Virus record (IMG/VR): IMGVR_UViG_3300020112_000604
Coordinates: 64,001-128,000 of that record
From: a virus
Lineage: Duplodnaviria > Caudoviricetes
Length of the DNA stretch: 64,000 nt
Strand: one strand, 5' to 3'
Of the stretch, positions 1,734 through 58,490 are shown piece after piece. How positions within the stretch are numbered: position 1 is the stretch's first letter; every line of letters begins with the position of its first letter. The notes below the pieces were generated by a model, which was not told the origin of the DNA, made no database searches, and worked only from the letters and a program-made list of their open reading frames with translations. A program made the translations under genes and the position numbers.

Positions 1734-4700
1734 TGCTAAACAATGGAAATCTTATATCATCAGATATCTATGATTTAACCGAATTCGTTAAGCAGTTAAA
1801 GAAGAAATACATCCCGTTACAGGATGAAGATACTCTTTACATATCCACATTCGGTTATATTGGCGATATCGCTGCGAACTTAATGCAGAATTCTGTAATA
1901 GCTGCATCTGAATACAGTAACGAAGCTATTCCAACTCGTGCAAAGTTTGACCGTAATGTAATTATTCATGCAATGACATTAGGAATTGATAAGGTTCATG
2001 CTACACCAGCAACAATGCCGATAGTTCTGTGTATTCCTGAATCTTGTGTAGTTCAGAATCTTGGTAATAACAAAACTGGCGAACGTCAGGAAGGTGTGTT
2101 CACAATAGACCACACTATCCCGTTCACTATTGAAGGTGTCGAATTCCATCTGGATTATGATATCAATATCACCAGATACAAAAAGGAATACAAACCTACA
2201 CCAACTACAGGAGACCCAGACAATCTCACATCTGTAATTTATACAGCAAGATATGATATGTCTGTACCAAATCCGGTATCAGACATTGATAACGAAATAC
2301 TTCCTACTGTCGGTGTATTCAGATATGCAGATATCTTCCAGAACTCTCTGGCAAAGGCGGATAACGTTCTTGTTATCTATACTAAGCTCAGTCAGGTTAT
2401 GTATCATGAAGAAGAAGTTGTCGTTTCATCCGATAATGACTTACTTAATAAAACAATCAGCTTCCAGTTCAGTGACCAGTTAGCATACTTCGACGTTGCT
2501 GTATACGAGGCTAATGCAGATACGCCTAGAGTTCTTACACCAATATATGACGGATTATACAAGGATGGAGTAACTAACTACTGTTACTACAGTTATATGA
2601 ATTCTAATAGTATTCGTATACGCTTCGACAGAGATGTATATCAGCCTAGAATGAATTCTAGAGTTGTTGTTCGTATATACACAACACTTGGCTCCGGCGG
2701 TAACTTCAAATACTCCGAAAACGTAAGACTCCAGTTCCCGTCAACCTCTAAAGCAGATTACAACAGCGTGTTCGCTTTAATCCAGCAGAGAGGTGATGGC
2801 GCAACCGATGGTCTTGATAGAGCGTCTACAAAGCAGCTTCAGGAAATCATTCCTAAGGAAATGCTTTCACGAGGATTTATTACAACTAACACAGACTTAC
2901 AGAATTATTTCAATTCTTTAAGTACTGAAAACAGTATTGTCTATGTATTCAGAAAGGAAGACTCATTCCTTAAACGTACATATTATTCATATTCACTTAT
3001 GAAAGACAACGAAGGTAATATTATTCCAACAAACACAATCCCGATAGAAATTGAGGGACAGGATGTGAACTCAATAGACGTTTCGTCAATCGGATTTCTT
3101 GAAGCTGGTACCGCAGTATTCTTACCTGTGACACCGTCCACCACAGACCAGCCGGTTGTTGCATTACCAGTCAATATGAAGAATGCAATGTTTAATCTTC
3201 CTGAATATGACGAGAATGCCCGAATCACAGGTCAGATTCTGTTCAGTGATGCAAACTTTAACACATTCGCATCAAGGTCTATGGCCACTGTTGGTAATTC
3301 TGTTGTATTAAGAACTATAATCAACCACGACTACGAATTATACGAACGTGGTGAACACGAACGCATGCCGTCACATCCTATTCCGTTAAACGGTCAGGTT
3401 AATAAGTCCGACTTCACTAAGGCTTGGAACGCTAACAGTTCATTCATATATACAGTCCCATATTCAATCGTTGTATCTCAGCCTAGAGGTACATTAGGTA
3501 TGGTTCGTCCAAGATGTAGCTTTATTGTCGACACTATCGACGAAAACAAGTTTACCACATTTGAATGGATTAACGAAAAGTCAACTGTTCAGTTTATTGC
3601 TTCTAACGTAAGAGTATCAAGACCATCATTCATGTGCCATGACAGATACGTTTATTATCTTGATATTGACCTTACACCTAACCAGAACAAAGCCAATATT
3701 GACATCAACAAGATTCAGACTACAGCTGTATTCAAGATTGACGGGGAAGCTAAGGGATACGTTACCGGCTATCACATTGCCGACCTCGATGACGAAGAAT
3801 CAATACATTTCAGATTCCGTTTTGAAACTGAACCTCTTGCCACTGCATGGTATGAGAACAAGTTAAGAGTTTCAAATATCTATACACCAGGTTATACTGA
3901 TAAGAGTATTGACCCAGTAAAACTCTTCCCGGAAAAGATTGACGTTGATATCTTCACTATGTATCACTATGCTGCAGAAAGACCTTGTAAGTCAATTGGT
4001 GAATCATTCGGTGGTGGAGATCTTGAAGCCGGCGAAATTGCTATGTATCAGCCGGTTACATTTGCATATCCATTCCAGCTTAGAGATACTGACCGTGTTG
4101 GTCCTGAAGGCAAAGAATACATGAAGTACTTTGCTAAGGAAAATGACACTGACCCGTTCACCAATCCGCATCCAATCTACACAGAATATGCTACATATAA
4201 GAAGTATGCAGACTTTATTGAGGACAATCCGAGATGTGTATACGCTATGGGTAACATGGTACTCACAAATAAATACTCTATCACTAGCGGAATTAATCTG
4301 TATTATAACTATTCAGATTATATGGATTCCCATGTATCTGTATCAGAAGCCCCAGCACTTGGTCATTCATACGACTTCACACTGAATCGTATTCCAGTAA
4401 TCAGAATGGAATATCTTGAATCTGAAGAACGTGTACAGTTTACCATGAATGAATTACGTAAGGCTATGATTTATGTATCAAACAGCGTAGGAAAACTCGA
4501 AACACTCTTCGGTATAGACTTCAAGCTGTTTAACACATATGGACCATCTAAGACATACAGCATAGAAGACTCTAACGGTTCACTCTATCCGCTCAATCAG
4601 GTTAACCTTACACTCAACTTCAGAGCACAGCTTTACACCGATGCAGATAAGAATATCATTGCACAGATTAAGTCTGACATCAAGTCTTACATTGAAGACA

Positions 4701-4945
4701 TCAAGGAGATTAAGAATATCCATATGCCAAATCTTATTTCAGAGATTACTAAGAAGTATGGTGGATATCTTGTATACTTCGAATTCGTTGGCTTCCAGAA
4801 TGAAATCGGAAAGTACAATGCGTTGTATCAGCATATCATCACAAACAAGGATATGGAACAGCTTAAGGAAGTTCCGGAGTTCTTAAATATCAATTTCAAC
4901 ACATTGTCATCAGCCCCAGACATCAACATTGATATAATTGTATAA
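1733..4945 (+). CDS. Baseplate wedge-like structural protein (~1070 aa)
   Basis: TAATG stop/start overlap at 1731-1735; NEAIPTRAK, IYTTLGSGGNF, GATDGLD and ITTNTDL segments resemble T4 gp6/baseplate J-like wedge proteins. Confidence 0.7.
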   Translation: MLNNGNLISSDIYDLTEFVKQLKKKYIPLQDEDTLYISTFGYIGDIAANLMQNSVIAASEYSNEAIPTRAKFDRNVIIHAMTLGIDKVHATPATMPIVLCIPESCVVQNLGNNKTGERQEGVFTIDHTIPFTIEGVEFHLDYDINITRYKKEYKPTPTTGDPDNLTSVIYTARYDMSVPNPVSDIDNEILPTVGVFRYADIFQNSLAKADNVLVIYTKLSQVMYHEEEVVVSSDNDLLNKTISFQFSDQLAYFDVAVYEANADTPRVLTPIYDGLYKDGVTNYCYYSYMNSNSIRIRFDRDVYQPRMNSRVVVRIYTTLGSGGNFKYSENVRLQFPSTSKADYNSVFALIQQRGDGATDGLDRASTKQLQEIIPKEMLSRGFITTNTDLQNYFNSLSTENSIVYVFRKEDSFLKRTYYSYSLMKDNEGNIIPTNTIPIEIEGQDVNSIDVSSIGFLEAGTAVFLPVTPSTTDQPVVALPVNMKNAMFNLPEYDENARITGQILFSDANFNTFASRSMATVGNSVVLRTIINHDYELYERGEHERMPSHPIPLNGQVNKSDFTKAWNANSSFIYTVPYSIVVSQPRGTLGMVRPRCSFIVDTIDENKFTTFEWINEKSTVQFIASNVRVSRPSFMCHDRYVYYLDIDLTPNQNKANIDINKIQTTAVFKIDGEAKGYVTGYHIADLDDEESIHFRFRFETEPLATAWYENKLRVSNIYTPGYTDKSIDPVKLFPEKIDVDIFTMYHYAAERPCKSIGESFGGGDLEAGEIAMYQPVTFAYPFQLRDTDRVGPEGKEYMKYFAKENDTDPFTNPHPIYTEYATYKKYADFIEDNPRCVYAMGNMVLTNKYSITSGINLYYNYSDYMDSHVSVSEAPALGHSYDFTLNRIPVIRMEYLESEERVQFTMNELRKAMIYVSNSVGKLETLFGIDFKLFNTYGPSKTYSIEDSNGSLYPLNQVNLTLNFRAQLYTDADKNIIAQIKSDIKSYIEDIKEIKNIHMPNLISEITKKYGGYLVYFEFVGFQNEIGKYNALYQHIITNKDMEQLKEVPEFLNINFNTLSSAPDINIDIIV

Positions 4946-4959
4946 AAGGAGGTAGTATC

Positions 4960-6051
4960 ATGTACGAACCACTCGAATCTTATAGACAGTATAGAGAATA
5001 TCAGGATCAGCGTGATGCAGAATATGCCGAAAACCAGCAGGCTATCGGGGAAGCAGTCACTACTGAAAGATACGCAGCTTTAAGTGAAGCTTACCATTCA
5101 CCAGTCGCTACAAAGACAACTTTAAGAGCTCAGGTTGGTAAGTTCAGAAACGACGTTTATAAGTCTCTCGTTGCAGAGGCTGTATCTATTGTCGCTTCAT
5201 GTGCCGTTAAGGCGGTTAAGGATTCAGACGCATTTGACTACTCAAGAGAATCAGCTATCCTCGGACAGCTTGCAAAGTCATGGGTAGAAGAACAGTCTAT
5301 GTATGACGTTCAGTCAAAGATGAATTCTACAGTTATCCTTTCGTCATTTGATTGTGCTTGTAAGAAGTACACAGATATCATTGTAGAAAAGGCTACACAG
5401 AAGATTGACAAGGGTTCCGAGGACAAGAATTACATATTCGAAATCGAAGATGATGACCGTGAAAACTTCTACAAAGAACTTGACGCAGTCAATGCAGATG
5501 AACTCGTTTACACAATCCGTAATAGAGTATCAGACGCTTCACAGAGCTTCCTTAACGACTATGTAAAGGATAAGCTCGAAATCAAATCAATCATGCAGGA
5601 CACTAAGAATACCGTTGACGCTCTTAAGTCAACACTTCCTGGTGCTACACCAACAAATGATGCTATGGATGACGGTATCCCATCTGCATCAGAATATGAC
5701 CCATATACGTTCCACAATCCGGAAGAAGAAACTCCGGCTGTAGAAACACCTACAACAGAAAGCGTTGAAGAGTCATATATGAATATTGCAAAACGCAAGA
5801 TTCATAAGATTATGAACAAGCCTTGTATGTCAGTATACGAAGCTATGGTTCTCAATCTTTCAACCGCAGCTTATAAGAACAAAGCTCTCACTGAAGAATT
5901 CGTTACAGAAAACGCTAAGCTCGACACTGATGCGGTAAGAACACGTGCCGGTGTTATGTACACATGGCTCGAAACACTCAACACATCAGGACTCGAAAAC
6001 GTTACTGAAGAATATCTCAAGAATACTCTTGAAGAAATTAAGAATCTTTGA
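4960..6051 (+). CDS. Putative virion (head-internal) protein
   Basis: Strong AGGAGG RBS; acidic; several L/V-x-E-S/A/N sites of prohead-protease type; in late operon. Confidence 0.55.
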   Translation: MYEPLESYRQYREYQDQRDAEYAENQQAIGEAVTTERYAALSEAYHSPVATKTTLRAQVGKFRNDVYKSLVAEAVSIVASCAVKAVKDSDAFDYSRESAILGQLAKSWVEEQSMYDVQSKMNSTVILSSFDCACKKYTDIIVEKATQKIDKGSEDKNYIFEIEDDDRENFYKELDAVNADELVYTIRNRVSDASQSFLNDYVKDKLEIKSIMQDTKNTVDALKSTLPGATPTNDAMDDGIPSASEYDPYTFHNPEEETPAVETPTTESVEESYMNIAKRKIHKIMNKPCMSVYEAMVLNLSTAAYKNKALTEEFVTENAKLDTDAVRTRAGVMYTWLETLNTSGLENVTEEYLKNTLEEIKNL

Positions 6052-8472: not shown

Positions 8473-9183
8473 TTATGTGAACTTGAGTTCGCCCTTATCA
8501 AAATATGGTATCTCGACGTTTTCTGGAAAGTCTTTGCGTCCGGTAATTGTTTTCCACTGTGGTTTAGTATAAACCGCATTTAGGAATTTTAAATCTATCT
8601 CTATTCTTGGTAATACTGAATAATACTTATTCACTATTCCGGTTACGGTCATAGCGTCATCTAACCATACATTGGCGTTATACATGTCGGAATACTTCTT
8701 TCCGATATTATCCCAGTCCGGTTTAGAAAGATGACGTATTAAACCTATCTCAGCAAGAAATGTTTGCCAAGTATTGAAACTCTTTGGTGTCTGGAAGTAT
8801 GCATTATATGTGACTATGGCAGGAGTTGTAACCAGATAATCCAGTTTGTATAACTCGTCATATGTCAACAATTCATGCATTCTCTTGTGTCCTGCCGCAG
8901 CATCTGGAGAGTATACGTGTACGAATCCATCTCTAGCCGCAGCGGCTACATTCTTTTTGGTAATGAAACGGAATCGAGGACGTTTAGCGCCCTCAGGATT
9001 CTCATATAGCGTTACCTTGTAGTCCATGTAGTACAGTTGGTCAACCATTGCATCACGATATGCAATGATATTATCGTAATCCTTAGGAGTTAAATGATAT
9101 TGACTACAAAGCCATTGCAATCGTTCATCATAATCTTTAGGAATTGAACCATACTTTTCAAGGTATTCTTTTTCGTTATACAT
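8473..9183 (-). CDS. rusA: RusA-family Holliday junction resolvase
   Basis: KRPRF, KPDWDNIGKKYSD and WLDD catalytic motifs, K-Y...PRIEI C-terminal strand. Confidence 0.85.
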   Translation of the reverse strand: MYNEKEYLEKYGSIPKDYDERLQWLCSQYHLTPKDYDNIIAYRDAMVDQLYYMDYKVTLYENPEGAKRPRFRFITKKNVAAAARDGFVHVYSPDAAAGHKRMHELLTYDELYKLDYLVTTPAIVTYNAYFQTPKSFNTWQTFLAEIGLIRHLSKPDWDNIGKKYSDMYNANVWLDDAMTVTGIVNKYYSVLPRIEIDLKFLNAVYTKPQWKTITGRKDFPENVEIPYFDKGELKFT

Positions 9184-11933: not shown

Positions 11934-14900
11934 TTACTTCTTAGCTATTCTGTAGACAGCGTCGATGATTTCGGAATTATTCATATCATTGAACTGTGCG
12001 TTCATAGCGTTGAGTCCCTGACGTGTCATACCGTTAGATGCAAGTAAAGCCTTTGAAAGCTCTGCCATCACGTTAGCAGTATTAGTGTCATTAGACTTGC
12101 CGCTCTTTGTGGATTTTGAATTGTTTCCTGAACCTGTCAGCTGACATGCGTTTGAAACTGAGAGTTTTGTAACTGCTGCAACGACATCCTGAAGTTTAGC
12201 AGTGTTGCCACTGATTTCACTAAGGAGTTTAACAACAGCGAGAAGAATTTCGTTAGTAGCGTTTCCGTTTGTAGGACCACCTGTATTCTTAGTGTTTGAA
12301 CCTATTCTAGCACCTGGCTCATACTTAGAACCGGTTGAACCTGTTCCTGAAGTACTTGCCGCAGCCTTAGCTTCAGCACGTTTAACAGCGTCTACTGCAC
12401 GTGTAACAGCATTTGTTGAAACCTTCTTGAAGTTTGCTGTGCCTGATGCTCTCGAAGAATCACATGTGCCGCTTGGACGTTTACCGTTAGCAGCCTGTCT
12501 AACAAGAGCCTTATCAACAAATCCCTTACCACTCTTCTTGTTAGGAGCTGGAGGTCCAACTAGTGTTGAAGATGTAGTAGTAGTAGAACTTGTTGTATTG
12601 GTTGTTTTCTTTGTGTTATTTGGAAGTAATGGTCCCATTACATCATCTGATGATGGTACAATTCCTGCACGCTGAGCTGCAGATTTAATGTAATCACTAT
12701 AGTCGTACTTGTTAGGGTCTACGTCGGCATGCCACATATCACTAGGCTTGTTAACCTGATAATGTAAGTGAGGACCTGTAGACTGACCAGTCGTACCACA
12801 GTAACCAACCAGTGTACCACGGAATACTTCGTCACCTTCATGAACCGGAGGAAGCTGACACTGATGTCCGAAGATGTGATAGTAACCATGAGTATCCTGA
12901 ACGATTGTAAGGTTGCCGTAGCCACCTGTATTCCATCCTGCGAATACTACCGTACCATCAACTGGAGAATATAATTTGTTGCCTTCTGGAGCAGCATAGT
13001 CAATACCACTATGGTCAGATCTATCTGGCGTTCTATATCCAGAAGATACCGATGAACCTTCAAGTGTTGCTAAGAACCATGCATCGGAACCATTTTCGGA
13101 TACAGATGATAAGTAGTCCTCGTCTCCGAGAGCACCTACACCTGCAGCTGCATTACCAGTTGTTGCCGATGCTGCACCGAATATGGCGTCGTATAAACCG
13201 CCATAGAGCTTTTTCAGTACCTTAGTAACGTAAGTACCAAGCCGTCCTATGAATGTGTTATCTACGGTTGTTGTTCCGCCATCTCCGTCTACGGATGAAC
13301 CATTATATGAGCCATTAACCGTGAAATCCTTGCAAATTGTACCAGGAGTATAGTTATTGAGATCGATATTTGCGAGTTTAGCTCCTGTATCTTTGATACG
13401 ATTTACCCATGCTCCTGAATACTGGCTTCCGCATGTAGCCCACCATGAGCTTGTAGCCATACGGTTAACGACATCATTGATTTCTTCGACGCCACCCTTG
13501 TGTGAAGGTCTCCATCCATCTGCCCATCCAGTGTGAACACCAGAGTTATAGATATCAGCAGGAACGATCATTGAAAGTGGGTTCTGAAGAATGCCAGAGT
13601 TATACATTTTAAGAGGATGAACCATGTTATTTTCTCTAAAGAGTTTATATGCCATGTTTTCCTGAACGTCCTGTCCAATACTCTCGTATTTTTCAAGAAC
13701 CTTAGAAAGTTTGTCAGCTTCACTCTGAGAAATAGCACTTGTTGCACGATTTGCAATGTTTAAGAGATATGCCTTGTCATCCGCATCAGTAACACGAGCA
13801 GCCATTTCACGAAGAACGTCTGCTGCAAGTGTGGCATGGAAACCGATTGCACCGATTGAAATACCACTGCCGTTATCATCAGGACATACTGCATGGAAAC
13901 CACCGGCTGTAGCTGCTTCTCTTGATACTACACATTCATAAAGAATAGCGTAAAGATTCTTTTCCTGCTGTGGTGTGAGAGCCGGTCCTGTGCCTGATTT
14001 AACACCCTTACGATATGACAATGGAGTAATACCTCTACCACTACGTTTTCCACGTCCTGCACTAATAGCGTAGATAGAATCTCTGATAGTGTCATTTGCG
14101 TCATAAATTCTATCGCCGAATGGATCTTCAGGGTCCTGAACAACTATCTTGTTGTTCTTCATTCCTGTTGCAAGTACATAGTGAGCATTCTGATTTCCGA
14201 ACGGAGTGGTTCCTCTACCAGACTGTCCCATGAGAATTACATCTTCACCATTAGCGAGTCTACGTCTTAAGTCCGAACGTGTTCCGACGTTTGCTGTACG
14301 TACACCATTTTTGCCGAGATAGTCTCCAAAGAATTCTGGGAATGTACCAGCGTTTCTTTCCTTATAGCCAAGAGCATTTCTTGCTGCGTCTCTTACGTCG
14401 TAATTCAGTCCACGTCTAGCGAGAACTTCTGAAGCAACTACAGGACCACAACCTGAGTCAGCGATTGACTGGAAATTGCTGTCACCAGAAATATTGAATC
14501 TATCATCATAATCTCTCTGATAGAGATGTGGGTTTGCCCCACCTGAATACTGGGACTTGATGTATGATGCCTGTTCGTCATCCAGTGGTTTAGGTGGGAT
14601 TAAGTATTTAAGTTTACGATTTTTGAATTCTGAACCCTTACCAGATTTCTTCTTACCGCCAAAAAGATTACTGAAGAATGTAGCAATCTTGCCTTTCTTC
14701 TTGGTTGTTGAAGACTTAGAGGTATTTGTGTTTGTTTTCTGAATAGGTTTTGGTGTTGTCATATCGTGCATTGACTCGTGACTTACACTGTAACCTGTAC
14801 CAGAAACTTCAGTATTTGTCAGCTGTGTTGCCGATGAAGCTTCGGTATCGAATACGGAATTAATAGCGTCCTGAATGATTGTGAGTGGTGATGAAATTGC

Positions 14901-42104: not shown

Positions 42105-42270
42105 TAGCACTGGAGATAGGATTATGTCCTATCTCCAAGCTTTTGTCTTTTATACTTTGTAATATTTACCCTATCACATGTCACAATATTTGACATTGTG
42201 TATACTTTTGTTAAGAACAAGGGGTCTTTGTCGTAAAAGTAATAAACTACAACTCATATAACATTTTCGT

Positions 42271-42530
42271 AATTTATACGAAAATAAGACCTAGACTTAG
42301 TCTAAGTATGACTATGCCTTAGCATAAGTCATACTAAGCTAACTAGTCTAGACCATTTTCCGTATAAACGAAAATCATCCCTATTAACGAAATAAACGCT
42401 TATCCAGTCCTGAGTCAGGACTGGATCTTTTCTTGCGTTTGTAGATAAAGAAGAAGACTGGAGCCAAGGCTTTCTAGGATGAGTTTCAACGAATAGGACT
42501 ACGCTAAGGCTACGTCCTATTCTAGGGACA
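42271..42530 (+). ncRNA. Putative structured non-coding RNA
   Basis: AACA-N6-TA at 42260-42271 directly followed by a 96-nt rod hairpin (42273-42368) and further stems; no ORF. Confidence 0.6.
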
Positions 42531-42619
42531 GACCTTTATACCTGACGTATAATGATCTCCAATTGGTATATAGATACAATCAATTTAACCTACTTATAAT
42601 AAGTCAATAGAAAGGAGAG

Positions 42620-42832
42620 ATGTTTATGAATGGAAGATGTGATATCATAGACGTTGTAGAATATATGAACTACGACTGTCATAACCTAAACTGTTTCAAA
42701 TGTAAGTATTGTTGGTTTGTATCCAGAAGAATGGAAGGACCACTATACAACGTAAAAGATGCGATAGATCCATTTGCGATGATCTATTCAGAAGGAGAAG
42801 TTGTTGACACATCTACGTCAGCAACACATTAA
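42620..42832 (+). CDS. Small Cys-rich protein
   Basis: CHNLNCFKCKYC; AGAAAGGAG RBS (start may be 42626); AACC-N6-TA at 42587-42598. Confidence 0.65.
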   Translation: MFMNGRCDIIDVVEYMNYDCHNLNCFKCKYCWFVSRRMEGPLYNVKDAIDPFAMIYSEGEVVDTSTSATH

Positions 42833-43579: not shown

Positions 43580-43649
43580 TAATGTACTTTAACGGCTCAC
43601 CTGAATAGGGTGAGCCGAACTTTATATTAATCAGAAAGGAGGAATTAAC

Positions 43650-47127: not shown

Positions 47128-48111
47128 ATGAATTTGAATATAAAAGATATTTCTACCGTTGAAGACTCTGTTCAGTCTAACGGTGATTATAAAGCTCACG
47201 GTCATGTACAGAAGACTCGAGTTATAATCCACGAAGTTCTTCCAAGCGGAAGAAAGATATTCAGAGAACTTGGTGAGAACAAGGTAATCGTATCAGGCTC
47301 TGAATTCCATGCAAGAAAAGACTTCAATTTCGGCACAGGTACTTGCTACACTGTAGGCAATAAGGATTCATCTGGCTTCTATAATAAGCTGCCAAATATT
47401 CCTACATACGATGACGAACTCGATGCTAAGTACACATCAACATTTCCTGCAGGTGCCACAGTATACACTGGTGGACAGATGTCAGCCGAAGAAGCTCGTA
47501 AGATATATCTGTTCGGTGTAGGTATCGATGGATGTGGAATCGAAGCATCAAGACGTTTCGTTGTTGCTAAGAACGACTGGATTAAGCCATACGGTCCTGC
47601 ACCGGATGCTCTTACTCCAGAAGGCACAGAAGTTTCTACATGTCTTATCCCATTCAGATGCGTTGATACTGAAACACCAAAGTCCCCTGCTGCTATGGTA
47701 AACTCACATTACCATGGTGCATATCAGGATACAGAAAACGGCAAGACACTTTACTTCTTCAAGGAATTCGATAACGCACCTGTACTCGATTGTACAGCCG
47801 GCGGAGTTCCGATATCTGCTATCACAGGCGGCAGTATCTGGAAGTATAAGACATCAGGTGCCATTGAATGTACTGTTAAGCTTACACTCTCTGTAACAGC
47901 TGAAGACGTCAAGGAGTGGTTTGCTCTGCATGGCGAAGAATCTACTTCTAAGATTAACACAATTTCACTTATCTCTGCGGTTCCATATCTTGATTCATCA
48001 GATAATCTTTGGTATAAGGACTACCGTCCGGTTACCAAGTACAACATGACAAACAAGCCGCTCTCAGATCCAAACTCTGGACTTGAAATCACATACATTC
48101 TGTACTATTAA
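47128..48111 (+). CDS. Virion structural protein (baseplate/fibre-associated)
   Basis: ENKVIVSG, LFGVGIDG, YFFKEF, terminal YILYY. Confidence 0.55.
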   Translation: MNLNIKDISTVEDSVQSNGDYKAHGHVQKTRVIIHEVLPSGRKIFRELGENKVIVSGSEFHARKDFNFGTGTCYTVGNKDSSGFYNKLPNIPTYDDELDAKYTSTFPAGATVYTGGQMSAEEARKIYLFGVGIDGCGIEASRRFVVAKNDWIKPYGPAPDALTPEGTEVSTCLIPFRCVDTETPKSPAAMVNSHYHGAYQDTENGKTLYFFKEFDNAPVLDCTAGGVPISAITGGSIWKYKTSGAIECTVKLTLSVTAEDVKEWFALHGEESTSKINTISLISAVPYLDSSDNLWYKDYRPVTKYNMTNKPLSDPNSGLEITYILYY

Positions 48112-48116
48112 AATAC

Positions 48117-48146
48117 AAACCGTAACTCCTAGTGAGTTACGGTTTT
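48117..48146 (+). terminator. Intrinsic terminator
   Basis: AAACCGTAACTC/GAGTTACGGTTT plus T-run. Confidence 0.8.
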
Positions 48147-48153
48147 ATTTTTT

Positions 48154-48165
48154 AACAATGCTATA
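48154..48165 (+). promoter_or_regulatory. Late promoter AACA-N6-TA with no downstream CDS
   Basis: AACAATGCTATA immediately after a terminator. Confidence 0.6.
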
Positions 48166-48700
48166 ACTATATAGTAAAAAATATGACATTAACTTTAATT
48201 ATAGATGATGTACCTCCCATGCCCTCATATCCAGGAGACATGACAATTCTCCTGGATGTGAAGGTCTACATCACATATAACTAAATAGTAATATAAAATA
48301 GATATTTTCACCATCTTAAAGAATTGAAGCATTCCTTTCTGGTTCTGTAATCGGAGCTGTGACACAAACCATAGCTCCGAATATCAGAATCCATCACTAA
48401 CGAATTTTTCAAACTTTAGGTTTTCATAATTTTTTCACTCTTTTCTTCTCTATGCTAGATGTGAAAGCTCATACATCAATGAGCTTTCCTTACCTAGCAT
48501 AACAACTAAAGACATTTTCAGAAGTAATCCTTTTCCTTCACTTCTTTCTTTTCTTTCCTTCCTCAGAGAGCTATGGCCTTCGGCTTTACATAAACTTGAA
48601 GGCTACTACCTCTGAATAACAAATGACATTTTCATCATTTCCTTTCTATAAAAATAAATTAGTAAACTGGCTCACCCTAATCGGGTGAGCCGATTTACTT
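48166..48700 (+). ncRNA. Tandem array of four hairpin-plus-linker RNA units (~110-125 nt period) closed by a fifth hairpin
   Basis: Hairpins 48206-48273, 48341-48392, 48451-48501, 48563-48615; repeated AACTAA-like and GAYATTTTCA motifs; G-U pairs favour the plus strand. Confidence 0.7.
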
Positions 48701-48754
48701 GCAACTTGTATGTAAGACATAATCCTGTGTCTTGGAGGACGGATGACATAAATA

Positions 48755-48781
48755 TCCCGTGACGAGCATATCGTCACGGGA
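48755..48781. terminator. Bidirectional terminator
   Basis: TCCCGTGACGA/TCGTCACGGGA stem after the beta-prime C gene. Confidence 0.75.
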
Positions 48782-48794
48782 AGTATTTTGTCTT

Positions 48795-50027
48795 TTACTC
48801 GTCTGGGAATGCTTTGTCTAAGTCTATATCTGTATACTTAACAACACCATCGTGGAAAGCTTTCATGGCGATATTCTTAATCTTGGACTGCATTTGTGCT
48901 GTAGCAATACCAACGGCACTCATTCCAATCATATAGAAGTAGTCGCCGATACATTTATTGCAGAACTGATGAGATGGTCCAATACCTTTGCACATAGAAC
49001 AATATCTCATCTTGACGGTCTTACCCTTATATTTATCGACAGTTGTGGAATCGAGTCTTACCAGATTCTTGCCGTCTACGATATATGAGTACATCATCTG
49101 TGATAAGTACTTTCCTTTGAGTGTAACCTCGATTGTTTCTGTAGTTCCACAGTCTGAACCTTTAGGACCAAGTACCAGGTTCTGGAATGAAAGAACGTAT
49201 TTCTTTTCGTTATAACCACCGGTCATTGTCTTTCTTGCACGAGCGTATGGACCTGCAGCAAGCGAGTTGGCCATGGCAGCATATTCATCTTTGCTAACTC
49301 CATCAACGTAGTTTGACAGCATAACGTTGTACTTACCTGTGATAGGGTCTTTAACAGCTCCCTTCATAACGTATGTGTTCTTGAAGTTGTTACCCCATGA
49401 ACCTACACCGCAATCGTAGTAGTCCATAGCAGGGTCATCCTTAAAGTATTCCTTAGCATATTTAAGAAGCTCGTTTTCGAGTTCAACGCCGGCAAGTGGG
49501 TCACCTGCAGCTATTCTGTCTTTATACTTTGGAAGAAGTTCTTTCTTCTTCTTGTTTATAGGTTCGGAAGCGTTAAACATTGCTTCTGTTGTTGAAACCG
49601 CAATAGCCGATGTATAAGACATAAACTTCTGCTGCTTCTGTAAGAATTCAAGTTCTACTTCGATAGGTATCTTATCTTCGTTTACCGCGTAAGCAACCTG
49701 TTCCGATATCTTACCGATATTCTTTTTGGTAAGGTCAAAGTTTACGTAACCAACTACGTCGGTTAACTTCTCTTCGATAAATGCTTTGTTGAAAATGAAT
49801 CTGCCTACAGTTGTAAGCACATCATTCTTGTTTTTGTGTCCTTCAGGACCAAAAGTTCCTGCAGGAATTGTCATGATATCGTATGTGTTGAATCTAGGAG
49901 GCTTACCCTCGAAAGATGCAAACAAGTTCATGAAGACAGACATCTTACATGCTTCATACGGAGTGAGTTTAAGTAATTCGTCCTGTTCTTCCTGAGTGAT
50001 AACTCGAGATATTCTTTTATTATTCAT
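48795..50027 (-). CDS. rpoC: Phage RNA polymerase beta-prime C-terminal subunit (probably virion RNAP)
   Basis: TTVGRFIFN, bridge-helix-like ARKTMTGGY, DCGT, RYCSMC...CNKCIG Zn site, trigger-loop-like MKAFHDG; late promoter at 50048-50059. Confidence 0.88.
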   Translation of the reverse strand: MNNKRISRVITQEEQDELLKLTPYEACKMSVFMNLFASFEGKPPRFNTYDIMTIPAGTFGPEGHKNKNDVLTTVGRFIFNKAFIEEKLTDVVGYVNFDLTKKNIGKISEQVAYAVNEDKIPIEVELEFLQKQQKFMSYTSAIAVSTTEAMFNASEPINKKKKELLPKYKDRIAAGDPLAGVELENELLKYAKEYFKDDPAMDYYDCGVGSWGNNFKNTYVMKGAVKDPITGKYNVMLSNYVDGVSKDEYAAMANSLAAGPYARARKTMTGGYNEKKYVLSFQNLVLGPKGSDCGTTETIEVTLKGKYLSQMMYSYIVDGKNLVRLDSTTVDKYKGKTVKMRYCSMCKGIGPSHQFCNKCIGDYFYMIGMSAVGIATAQMQSKIKNIAMKAFHDGVVKYTDIDLDKAFPDE

Positions 50028-50673: not shown

Positions 50674-52281
50674 ATGAATATTACTGAACAGGATATTGTG
50701 GATTACAGAAGTACGATCCGATTCACATATGCGAATGACCCACATTATGACACAGACGTTCATGTCGAGATACTCAATCTTGATGAAGAACGAGTTAAAG
50801 ACATGAACACAGGTAAGGGCATGCTTATTACACATAAGCAGTCTCTTAAGGCTAATGTCGAGAAGAATAGAAACTCTATCTTCTCATCTTACTTCTTCGG
50901 TAAGAATCTTGGTGACGTTGGTTCACCACTTGAATCAGAATACAAATGTCCATGCGGATATGTATCAGGACATCTGTATAACGGTTCTATCTGTCCTAAA
51001 TGCAGACAGAAAGTACGTAAACTTGAAACAAGCTTTGATAAGTATGGATGGATAGTAATCAGAAATTATTATCTGATTCATCCAAATTTATACAGAGCAC
51101 TCGAAACCTTCTTAGGTGCTAAGGTTCTTAACGATATATGCATGCCTCTTATCGATCTTGATAAGAACGGTCTCACAATCGTAAAAGAACAGATGCTTAA
51201 ACAGGTTGCCAAATCAGGTAAGAAGAAACTGACGAGAGAAACTAAAGCTTCACAGGAGAACCCATTCATCGGTATAGGTATGATTGAGTTCCACGATCGT
51301 TTCGATGAGATAATGAAGTATTACTACAGCAAAGCTTCACGTTCAAAGAAAGAATTGTACGAACACATAATGAATAACCGTGACAAGTTATTCACGTCAT
51401 CAGTTCCGGTATATTCACTTCAGTTACGTCCATATGAGATAACCGACAACAAGTTCGTTCTTGAATCTGTAAACAAGAACTACAACATGATGGCATCGCA
51501 TGCTAACTATGTTAACAAACAGGACTGTGCATTCCAGAATAACCGTAAGAGTAAATCGGTTCTTCTTTACAAGATGCAGCAGTGCTGGAATGATATCTAT
51601 TGTCTTACAGAGAAACGTCTCTCTGGTAAGAAGGGAGACATCAGAGAATGCATGTCATACCGTTCTAACTTCTCTATTCGTAATATCATTACTCCTGCAG
51701 TAGATCTCGAAATAGATGAAGTAAGATTACCATATGCTGCATGTATCGAACTTCTCAGATTACAGCTTATCGCTATTCTTCAGAAGACACACGGCTATTC
51801 TTATGCACAGGCCTATGCTGCTTGGTATAACGCAAAGCTTGTGCCTAATAAAGAAATGAAGAATCTTATGATGAGCATTATTAATGATTCACCATATGGT
51901 GGACTCCCTTGTTTGCTCAACAGAAACCCAACTATCAGCTTTGGTTCTATCTTATTCGTTAAGTGCGTTGGTATCAATGATAACTACGCATGTTCGGTAA
52001 GTAACCTCATTCTGAAATTGATCGCAGGTGACTTTGACGGCGACACAGTAACAATCTTGTATCTTATGAATCATGACATTATTATGAGAAGCATGATCAA
52101 CCTTAGCCCTATGAATGCGATGGTTATCAGTAAGAATGATGGCATGTTCAATGACGATGTAAATCTCCAGACCGAGGCTATTATATCTCTTAACAGCTTC
52201 AGACGTCTTGCTACACAGTACACCGAAGACGAGGAAGAAAACATTGCTCATCTCTTAACATTAAGACCTGAAGAAGAATAA
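50674..52281 (+). CDS. rpoC: Phage RNA polymerase beta-prime N-terminal catalytic subunit (probably non-virion RNAP)
   Basis: CPCG...CPKC Zn finger, LSGKKG, LLNRNPT, catalytic GDFDGD. Confidence 0.92.
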   Translation: MNITEQDIVDYRSTIRFTYANDPHYDTDVHVEILNLDEERVKDMNTGKGMLITHKQSLKANVEKNRNSIFSSYFFGKNLGDVGSPLESEYKCPCGYVSGHLYNGSICPKCRQKVRKLETSFDKYGWIVIRNYYLIHPNLYRALETFLGAKVLNDICMPLIDLDKNGLTIVKEQMLKQVAKSGKKKLTRETKASQENPFIGIGMIEFHDRFDEIMKYYYSKASRSKKELYEHIMNNRDKLFTSSVPVYSLQLRPYEITDNKFVLESVNKNYNMMASHANYVNKQDCAFQNNRKSKSVLLYKMQQCWNDIYCLTEKRLSGKKGDIRECMSYRSNFSIRNIITPAVDLEIDEVRLPYAACIELLRLQLIAILQKTHGYSYAQAYAAWYNAKLVPNKEMKNLMMSIINDSPYGGLPCLLNRNPTISFGSILFVKCVGINDNYACSVSNLILKLIAGDFDGDTVTILYLMNHDIIMRSMINLSPMNAMVISKNDGMFNDDVNLQTEAIISLNSFRRLATQYTEDEEENIAHLLTLRPEEE

Positions 52282-58271: not shown

Positions 58272-58375
58272 TATAAACCTCCTTCTATCCCTAGGATCCT
58301 CCTAGCGATTATAGACTAGTTAGGTTTATAGTTAAAAAGTAAAAATATTACACGTTAAACTATAACATTTAAAAT

Positions 58376-58490
58376 AAGAGTGCTAGAATCTTCTCTAAAT
58401 CTCTGTTATTTCTCCAAATTTGTGTTCGGTTTCATGTAATTCCTTTCCTATGGTCCCAGTACGATTATATCGTACTGGGAATCTTTTGCG
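58376..58490 (+). ncRNA. Putative small RNA with anti-RBS segment
   Basis: AACA-N7-TA at 58364-58376; GGTTTCATGTAATTCCTTTCCC; own terminator CCCAGTACGAT/ATCGTACTGGG. Confidence 0.45.

Follow-up and report, generated by a model that had tools for sequence, protein, structure and literature searches.

What occupies the 683 bases (48112–48794) between two convergent genes of a jumbo phage, and is this gap the site of a noncoding RNA? The window analysed here, 64,000 bases in length, corresponds to bases 64001–128000 of a 183.7-kb virus record with an estimated completeness of 75 %. The gene to the left of the gap (47128–48111, plus strand) has a product without a family match, and the 410 aa product of the gene to the right (48795–50027, minus strand) matches a PHROG 'RNA polymerase beta subunit' family, as does the 535 aa product of a gene at 50674–52281 on the plus strand. 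The RNA polymerase (RNAP) pieces recognised in the record are beta and beta-prime only, and these split multisubunit RNAP genes identify the virus as a jumbo phage of the AR9/phiKZ kind. Its clade has been little studied and is known here from metagenome assemblies alone, and a blastn search against GenBank phages found no DNA similar to the gap. Jumbo phages with their own RNA polymerases make small RNAs, none of which, to our knowledge, has an assigned function.

A first-pass annotation of the sequence had described the gap as about 680 bp without a real CDS, starting with a terminator and continuing with an array of four structured units transcribed from a late promoter. The absence of coding capacity was borne out. 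The longest ORF is 46 aa, none of the ORFs (≤46 aa) has a Pfam match and none is conserved in the near-identical strain L001 or in the more distant relatives L103–L105 (66 % identity). The initial terminator was also located, as a bidirectional intrinsic terminator of the upstream plus-strand gene (48117–48145), with a 12-bp stem and T-runs on both strands. When folding of the whole gap was compared with that of dinucleotide shuffles, z-scores of −11.2 for the plus strand and −14.1 for the minus strand were obtained. The four bulged hairpins that had been proposed fold as described, at −19 to −31 kcal/mol, and ACA(U/C) is found, again as described, in the apical region of every one of them. 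The box GAHWTTTTCA (also GAYATTTTCA) is present at all four of the positions where it had been reported (48301, 48402, 48511 and 48625), in each case on the plus strand, with a spacing of 101–114 nt. The array accounts for four of the five matches to this box in the window and for four of the ten in the 184-kb genome.

On the plus strand, the array opens with the AR9-late-type promoter motif AACA-N6-TA (AACAATGCTATA, 48154–48165), which has a predicted start near 48165, and with a clade-conserved 16-mer (TATAACTATATAGTAA, 48162–48177) that in this genome is unique to the locus. The repeat search returned another copy of the 16-mer, differing at one position, at 48276–48291; between the two lies hairpin 1 (48206–48273), made up of a 7-bp outer stem, an internal loop and a 3+14-bp inner stem (−30.7 kcal/mol on the plus strand and −29.1 kcal/mol on the minus strand). 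Box 1 (GATATTTTCA, 48301–48310) and linker 1 (48311–48340), with the 3′ end ATTCCTTTCT, follow. The second unit consists of hairpin 2 (48341–48392; −27.6 kcal/mol plus, −22.2 kcal/mol minus), box 2 (GAATTTTTCA, 48402–48411) and the U/C-rich linker 2 (48412–48450). Hairpin 3 (48451–48501; −23.0 kcal/mol plus, −25.9 kcal/mol minus) has the loop ACATCA and is followed by box 3 (GACATTTTCA, 48511–48520) and by linker 3 (48521–48562), a long CU tract homologous to one at 13886–13935 of the whole genome (G000). Hairpin 4 (48563–48615; −19.1 kcal/mol plus, −19.5 kcal/mol minus), with the loop ACAT, precedes box 4 (48625–48634), which has the same sequence as box 3, and a 16-nt segment (48634–48649) that was recovered in a complementarity search and is discussed below. 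Boxes 1 and 2 were detected in the motif scan, and boxes 3 and 4 in both the motif scan and the repeat search; box 3 lies inside a 20-nt repeat (AACAACTAAAGACATTTTCA) with copies at 48501 and 48615. Only imperfect repeats of 10–20 nt were returned by the repeat search of the gap. The pyrimidine tracts reported to follow the boxes are present as CU-rich linkers. The claim that stem mismatches read as G-U only on the plus strand did not survive, however, as hairpins 1 and 2 are better on the plus strand, hairpin 3 is better on the minus strand and hairpin 4 is equal on the two.

A scan for intrinsic terminators found three in the gap, at 48117–48145, 48668–48692 and 48755–48781 only. Hairpins 1–4 are not terminators because they lack U-tracts. 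The fifth hairpin (48661–48699), which had been taken to close the array, instead proved to be an ordinary terminator that has a paralog at another site of the genome. It is terminator-like on the plus strand and has a T-rich tail on the minus strand, and a terminator hairpin 92 % identical to it (48669–48692) is found at 43593–43616 of the window, indicating that terminator modules have been copied around the genome. The terminator at 48755–48781 is bidirectional and overlaps the end of the RNAP gene. Its 5-nt loop (48766–48770) is inverted in other strains, reading GCATA on the plus strand of the window and TATGC in L001, and contigs of runs X2 and X20 carry matching indels, a case of hairpin-loop flip polymorphism.

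The AR9 late promoter, used by the non-virion RNAP (nvRNAP) with its gp226-like specificity subunit, has AACA at −11 to −8, then N6 and T(A/G), transcription starting at the last base (PMC5312081, PMC5449584). The motif claimed for 48154–48165 is present and fits this consensus (PMC5312081). Genome-wide, AACA-N6-TA was found 25 times sense-upstream of genes and four times in other intergenic positions, and its density is 1.19/kb in intergenic DNA vs 0.36/kb genome-wide (3.3×). Across the window as a whole it is not enriched (46 found vs 61 expected), the enrichment being seen only upstream of genes. The likeness to AR9 thus extends to the motif, to its enrichment upstream of genes and to its presence in a phage with split RNAP genes, but the motif is here built into a longer 16-mer, which is conserved also in copies that lack AACA. 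Substitution of the first A of AACA abolished activity in AR9. The internal boxes, considered as further promoters, have GACA in place of AACA and are therefore not expected to act as such.

The 16-mer is no general promoter, with one or two occurrences in this genome and one to three in each of four complete relatives that carry it exactly and encode an RNAP piece 31–52 % identical to the one here. In these four relatives, it is found at various intergenic sites, with a hairpin of unrelated sequence directly downstream. The copies in the orthologous gap of L014/G002 and those in G001, G003 and G004 match it exactly, and those of L103–L105 differ at 1–3 positions. AACA is found at the late-promoter distance upstream of the 16-mer in the window, in G002 (with the spacing 1 base shorter) and in one G001 copy, and is absent upstream of the other copies in relatives; a late-type promoter class for the locus is therefore plausible but unproven. 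Copies were counted in demonstrably related phages only, because single AT-rich 16–17-mers have a high chance background in the viral collection; chance matches to the 16-mer were estimated by hand from base composition at about 1e-3 per genome. Scans of the collection with a 17-mer variant (>120 matches) or with two boxes about 100 nt apart (>115 seemingly unrelated matches) were uninformative. The exact 16-mer was also found, together with hairpins, upstream of a conserved 233-aa gene at G001:154815–154963 and G003:206835. The homolog of this gene in the window (8500–9171, minus strand, 52 % identity) is without the 16-mer element, and the 16-mer module hence lies at different loci in different phages.

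To examine conservation of the gap itself, viral and metagenome collections were searched with the RNAP piece, and about 70 loci were found. Among loci with the same convergent arrangement of flanking genes, the gap is hypervariable, with lengths of 55 bp to 2.5 kb, and small ORFs on either strand are often present in it. A gap of the noncoding type was found in four places, namely the window, L001, L103–L105 and L014/G002 (43–44 % identity). Only the noncoding-type gaps combine the 16-mer (0–3 mismatches), a downstream AYATTTTC(A/C) box and CU-rich words confined to a single strand (plus/minus counts of 5/0, 3/0, 4/0, 4/0 and 2/0). In L103, a perfect 13-bp closing stem (TTCTGAGGATGCT) begins directly after the 16-mer, and in L104 the closing stem is a perfect 15 bp of different sequence (CCCGAGGGAGTTGCT). 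The closing stem of L103–L105 encloses a structured domain of 180–225 nt and ends 1–10 nt before the box. Compared as sequences, these stems covary between the 16-mer and the box. The earlier proposal that structure is conserved over sequence was upheld. Unit 1 of the array (16-mer, hairpin 1 and box 1) looks like the ortholog of the single RNA of L103–L105. As the gap of the 66 % clade holds one structured domain, the four-unit array looks like a lineage-specific expansion in which units 2–4 are extra. In L002 (47 % protein identity; same contig as L112), the gap at 3956–5642 contains four tandem paralogous genes of 62–84 aa that share the motif C(S/T)MVVIP, each preceded by the early-like motif CTTATATATAAG and a AGAGAGTGAG...CTCACTCTCT hairpin.

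The locus is real, non-random and conserved. Between the window and L001, eight substitutions and one 2-nt insertion were found over 48154–48660. None of the eight substitutions falls in a main stem, where about 2.7 were expected (P about 0.04), which weakly supports selection on structure. In hairpin 4 of L001, one substitution turns a C.C mismatch into a G-C pair and the loop is also changed; the remaining changes are in loops, internal loops, boxes or linkers. An extended stem for hairpin 1 (48194–48212 with 48267–48285) was considered and rejected, as it is broken by changes in L001.

The array locus is probably transcribed. Contigs from RNA libraries of two studies cover it, at 48203–48473 and 48458–48624 in X18, at 48220–48488 in X19 and at 48074–48215, 48308–48552 and 48619–48886 in X20; they record presence only, neither strand nor level, and DNA carry-over is possible. 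The X18 and X19 contigs lie on the array and none lies on the flanking genes, missing cover not being evidence of relative abundance. The plus strand appears to be favoured by the promoter motif, the orientation of the 16-mer, the plus-facing terminators at the end of the gap both here and in L103–L105, the folding of the relatives' RNAs (the strand bearing the 16-mer folds better in nine of ten) and the paralogous unit at 58364–58487. For the array as a whole, it is the minus strand, which is purine- and U-rich, that folds better, by 17.5 kcal/mol. The plus-strand, late-promoter unit of the first-pass annotation is plausible, given the promoter motif and the plus-facing terminators, and we consider it likely that the gap is a plus-strand noncoding RNA locus of the phage. 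The paralogous unit (58364–58487, plus strand) is sRNA-like, and the genes on either side of it are on the minus strand. Its features are AACA-N7-TA, a CU-rich body in which TTTCATGTAATTCCTTTCCTAT resembles linker 4, and a terminator whose T-run is confined to the plus strand. Pairing of its RNA with initiation regions was no better than that of shuffles.

The linkers had been proposed to act against ribosome-binding sites, and their complementarity was screened against the 154 initiation regions of the phage genome. The genome has strong ribosome-binding sites, with GGAGG in 102 of the 154 genes. An AT-rich motif (TTATATATTAT) that resembles the AR9 early consensus is present in 13 copies, 10 of them upstream of genes, and in the whole genome the early-type promoter motif (A/T)CTTATATATTAT(A/T)A lies 33–100 nt upstream of 10–11 genes. 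Shine–Dalgarno (SD) sequences of the GAAAGG type were found in eight of 11 early-promoter genes vs 20 of 143 others (p=5e-5). In longest exact complementarity, linker 4 alone exceeds shuffles, with 16 nt (48634–48649) exactly complementary to the SD-to-start region of the early-promoter gene at G000:14068. In duplex energy, linkers 1 and 4 are better than composition-matched shuffles, the best duplex of linker 1 being −23.3 kcal/mol at G000:165813 (0/15 shuffles as good). Shuffles did as well as linkers 2 and 3, the 58400 RNA and the 13886 tract. Each of the four linkers forms better duplexes with the initiation regions of early-promoter genes than with the rest (p=0.002–0.02); a 16S-like control also prefers the early regions, with a weaker bias (p=0.02).

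The proposal is therefore supported in part, by linkers 1 and 4 and by the early-gene bias seen in all four linkers, and is contradicted by linkers 2 and 3 in the comparison with shuffled controls that the first-pass annotation had itself named as a refutation. Mimicry of the 16S 3′ end, which had also been claimed, was likewise seen in part, as the UCCUUUCU end of the tail is matched but the CCUCC core is not. The minus strand of 48634–48649 is a full initiation region, identical in 16 of 16 positions to that of G000:14068 and with the ATG in the same register, and 16-nt identities between the initiation regions of different genes are common in the genome. The match can therefore be explained as well by homology, the segment being a gene start copied in inverted orientation, as by selection for pairing. 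In the relatives' homologous RNAs, CU words show a mild excess (14 observed vs about 4.5 expected overall). On the sequence comparisons made here, translational silencing directed at the initiation regions of early genes is the likeliest function of the array, at well under an even chance. A paralog of the array units is found at G000:13886–13965 (plus strand), in the 3′UTR of a 68-aa gene, where TGACATTTTCAC and a CU tract are followed by a normal terminator. Immediately downstream of this paralog are the early promoter of G000:14068 and its initiation region, to which linker 4 is complementary.

Our preferred reading as a whole, which we hold tentatively and rate at somewhat under an even chance, is a late-promoted, lineage-expanded array of plus-strand noncoding RNA whose linkers dampen the translation of early genes. 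Transcription would start near 48165 from the AR9-late-type AACA-N6-TA associated with the 16-mer, cross the four bulged stem-loops, the GAYATTTTCA boxes and the single-stranded CU-rich linkers, and end at 48668–48692 or 48755–48781, giving a primary transcript of about 0.53–0.63 kb. The array would have expanded from a single structured RNA held by relatives at the same position. The exposed linkers (UCCUUUCU and a nearby CAU) may pair with GAAAGG-type SD and start regions and, since such regions mark early-promoter genes, an accumulating RNA would dampen the translation of early genes. The hairpins may make the RNA more stable and mark off its units, with the conserved box as a possible processing site. 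A stronger version, in which a multi-unit late RNA with four CU seeds acts together with the paralogs at 58364–58487 and G000:13886 to silence GAAAGG-SD early mRNAs selectively, seems unlikely; if true, a jumbo phage already in charge of its own transcription would also have a temporal switch based on RNA. Silencing of early genes by the array would more generally mean temporal control at the RNA level in a virus independent of host transcription. The locus offers a promoter-proximal element, a covarying structured RNA, a four-fold version of it and the candidate targets G000:14068 and G000:165813. With the array and the 16-mer, the annotation of noncoding RNAs in this jumbo-phage clade has a starting point.

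Several other readings were weighed against this one, and neutral debris in a variable gap is a serious rival. The locus would then be transcribed without a specific function, as a hypervariable junk or cargo gap filled with duplicated 3′UTR-plus-hairpin modules (cf. G000:13886–13965) and fragments of gene starts, and the hairpins would insulate the convergent genes. This reading fits the hypervariable gap length (55 bp to 2.5 kb) and the small ORFs, unrelated to one another and on either strand, that the gap holds in relatives. The variation in length also counts against the preferred reading, and so do the mixed G-U asymmetry of the array and the better folding of its minus strand. Junk or cargo is further favoured by the unit paralog that serves as an ordinary 3′UTR and terminator, by the copied terminator at hairpin 5 and by the two of four linkers without specific complementarity. 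It sits poorly with a 16-mer and box kept at this position in lineages of 43–66 % protein identity, with a covarying closing stem and stems spared by substitutions, with hairpins 1–4 that have no U-tracts and are not terminators, and with the non-random occurrence of [GT]ACAT and of apical ACAY, and we give it a low probability. A functional minus strand, on which each unit would read as SD, spacer, ATG and mini-ORF followed by a hairpin, either as relics of small genes downstream of the RNAP gene or as a ribosome-loading 3′ extension of the RNAP mRNA, draws on the complete initiation region in U4, on the better folding of that strand, on differences between the boxes that fall mostly at every third base and on the small gene present on that strand in L107 and L109. 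The strict initiation-region test was, however, passed by U4 only. The ATG is not kept (ATA in U1 and L103, AAT in U2), the lengths and sequences of the mini-ORFs are unrelated, no gene in the genome starts with the box mini-ORF peptide and L001 has a frame-breaking 2-nt insertion just upstream as well as a nonsynonymous change. Furthermore, promoter motifs directed that way are absent, and two terminators lie between the array and the RNAP gene. We regard this reading as rather improbable, and the mini-ORFs were rejected as genes because they are not conserved.

The remaining two readings invoke a bound protein or the DNA itself. In the former, (G/U)ACAU exposed in apical loops and single-stranded boxes would titrate or divert a host RNA-binding or RNA-cleaving factor, such as one of the MazF type, which would represent a new RNA counter-defence if the array is indeed a decoy. 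MazF-type endoribonucleases cut UACAU in Firmicutes. The motif [GT]ACAT was found seven times vs 1.5 expected (P<0.002); three apical loops and three boxes contain it. ACA(U/C) is shared by all four apical regions, and the multi-hairpin layout is similar to that of sponges of the CsrB/RsmZ type. Against this, L001 is without the UACAU of hairpin 4, (G/U)ACAU is not enriched in the relatives' homologous RNAs and no partner protein was identified. The UACAU loops, which had been put forward as MazF sites, were consequently set aside as such, and a sponge or decoy appears quite improbable. A DNA-level element, whether a replication origin of the promoter-plus-unwinding type, iterons or a recombination site, could account for an orphan promoter-like 16-mer with 1–3 copies per genome and a 10-bp palindromic core, for the repeated boxes and for the AT-rich DNA at 48166–48205. 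However, GC skew has no extreme at the locus, a box spacing of 101–114 bp is unlike that of iterons and the hairpin directly after the 16-mer in relatives leaves no room for an AT-rich unwinding region. The strand asymmetry of the relatives' folding points to RNA, and a DNA-level role is very improbable.

The preferred reading, a plus-strand noncoding RNA, was also compared with known systems, and the array is outside CRISPR, ToxI and every Rfam family. A tRNA scan of the gap found none. In Rfam 15 (including ROOL, GOLLD, ribozymes, Y RNA and tmRNA) the best match was 24.9 bits, vs a gathering threshold of 50, with E=0.11 and on a terminator; at E≤10 only chance matches were found for the gap and nothing relevant for L103–L105. 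The first-pass annotation had raised an antitoxin or a crRNA mimic as alternatives, and neither ToxI-like nor CRISPR-like repeats are present. A CRISPR array or RNA anti-CRISPR mimic has near-identical direct repeats of 24–48 nt with unique spacers between them, and the gap has only its imperfect short repeats. ToxI consists of near-identical tandem repeats of about 34–36 nt beside a gene for a ToxN-family endoribonuclease, and a phage pseudo-ToxI exists. The array resembles these in being made of tandem noncoding RNA units on a phage, but its units are dissimilar with a period of 101–114 nt, and it is flanked by an RNAP piece and a protein without a family, with no ToxN-like gene adjacent. 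CsrB and RsmZ are multi-hairpin sponge RNAs with the motif GGA. As in these, several hairpins of the array show one short motif in loops and linkers, but that motif is (G/U)ACAU rather than GGA and is not conserved in relatives.

RoxS/RsaE and Staphylococcus aureus RNAIII are C-rich anti-Shine–Dalgarno sRNAs of Firmicutes. The array is similar in that pyrimidine-rich stretches left exposed between its stable hairpins could base-pair with ribosome-binding sites rich in purines, and different in that it has U/C linkers rather than CCC loops, is phage-encoded and is four-fold. Complementarity beyond composition was found in two of its four linkers, and a promoter motif and terminators are present. 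By analogy, the array would work at most 'like' the Firmicute anti-SD sRNAs or the sponges, and it is a member of neither group. Closer counterparts are found in jumbo phage 201phi2-1, which is reported to encode eleven sRNAs, three of them intergenic, with function unassigned (PMC11512511). The sRNAs of 201phi2-1 and phiKZ are intergenic or 5′UTR-derived, with a start and a nearby terminator and with conserved position and structure (PMC11512511). They are, as is proposed for the array, small noncoding RNAs of jumbo phages that encode multisubunit RNA polymerases of their own, but they belong to another clade with a Pseudomonas host and are single units, and no sequence relation to the array was found. 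The array is the same kind of object as these jumbo-phage sRNAs, in another clade, with four units and with candidate targets. Separately from the array, a highly structured 5′ leader of about 300–360 nt was found in three copies, at 42260–42620 in the window, at G000:51177–51480 and at G000:166137–165813 (minus strand). Each copy begins with the late-type promoter AACATTTTCGTAATTTATACGA, continues with a long rod-like stem and lies upstream of a different gene.
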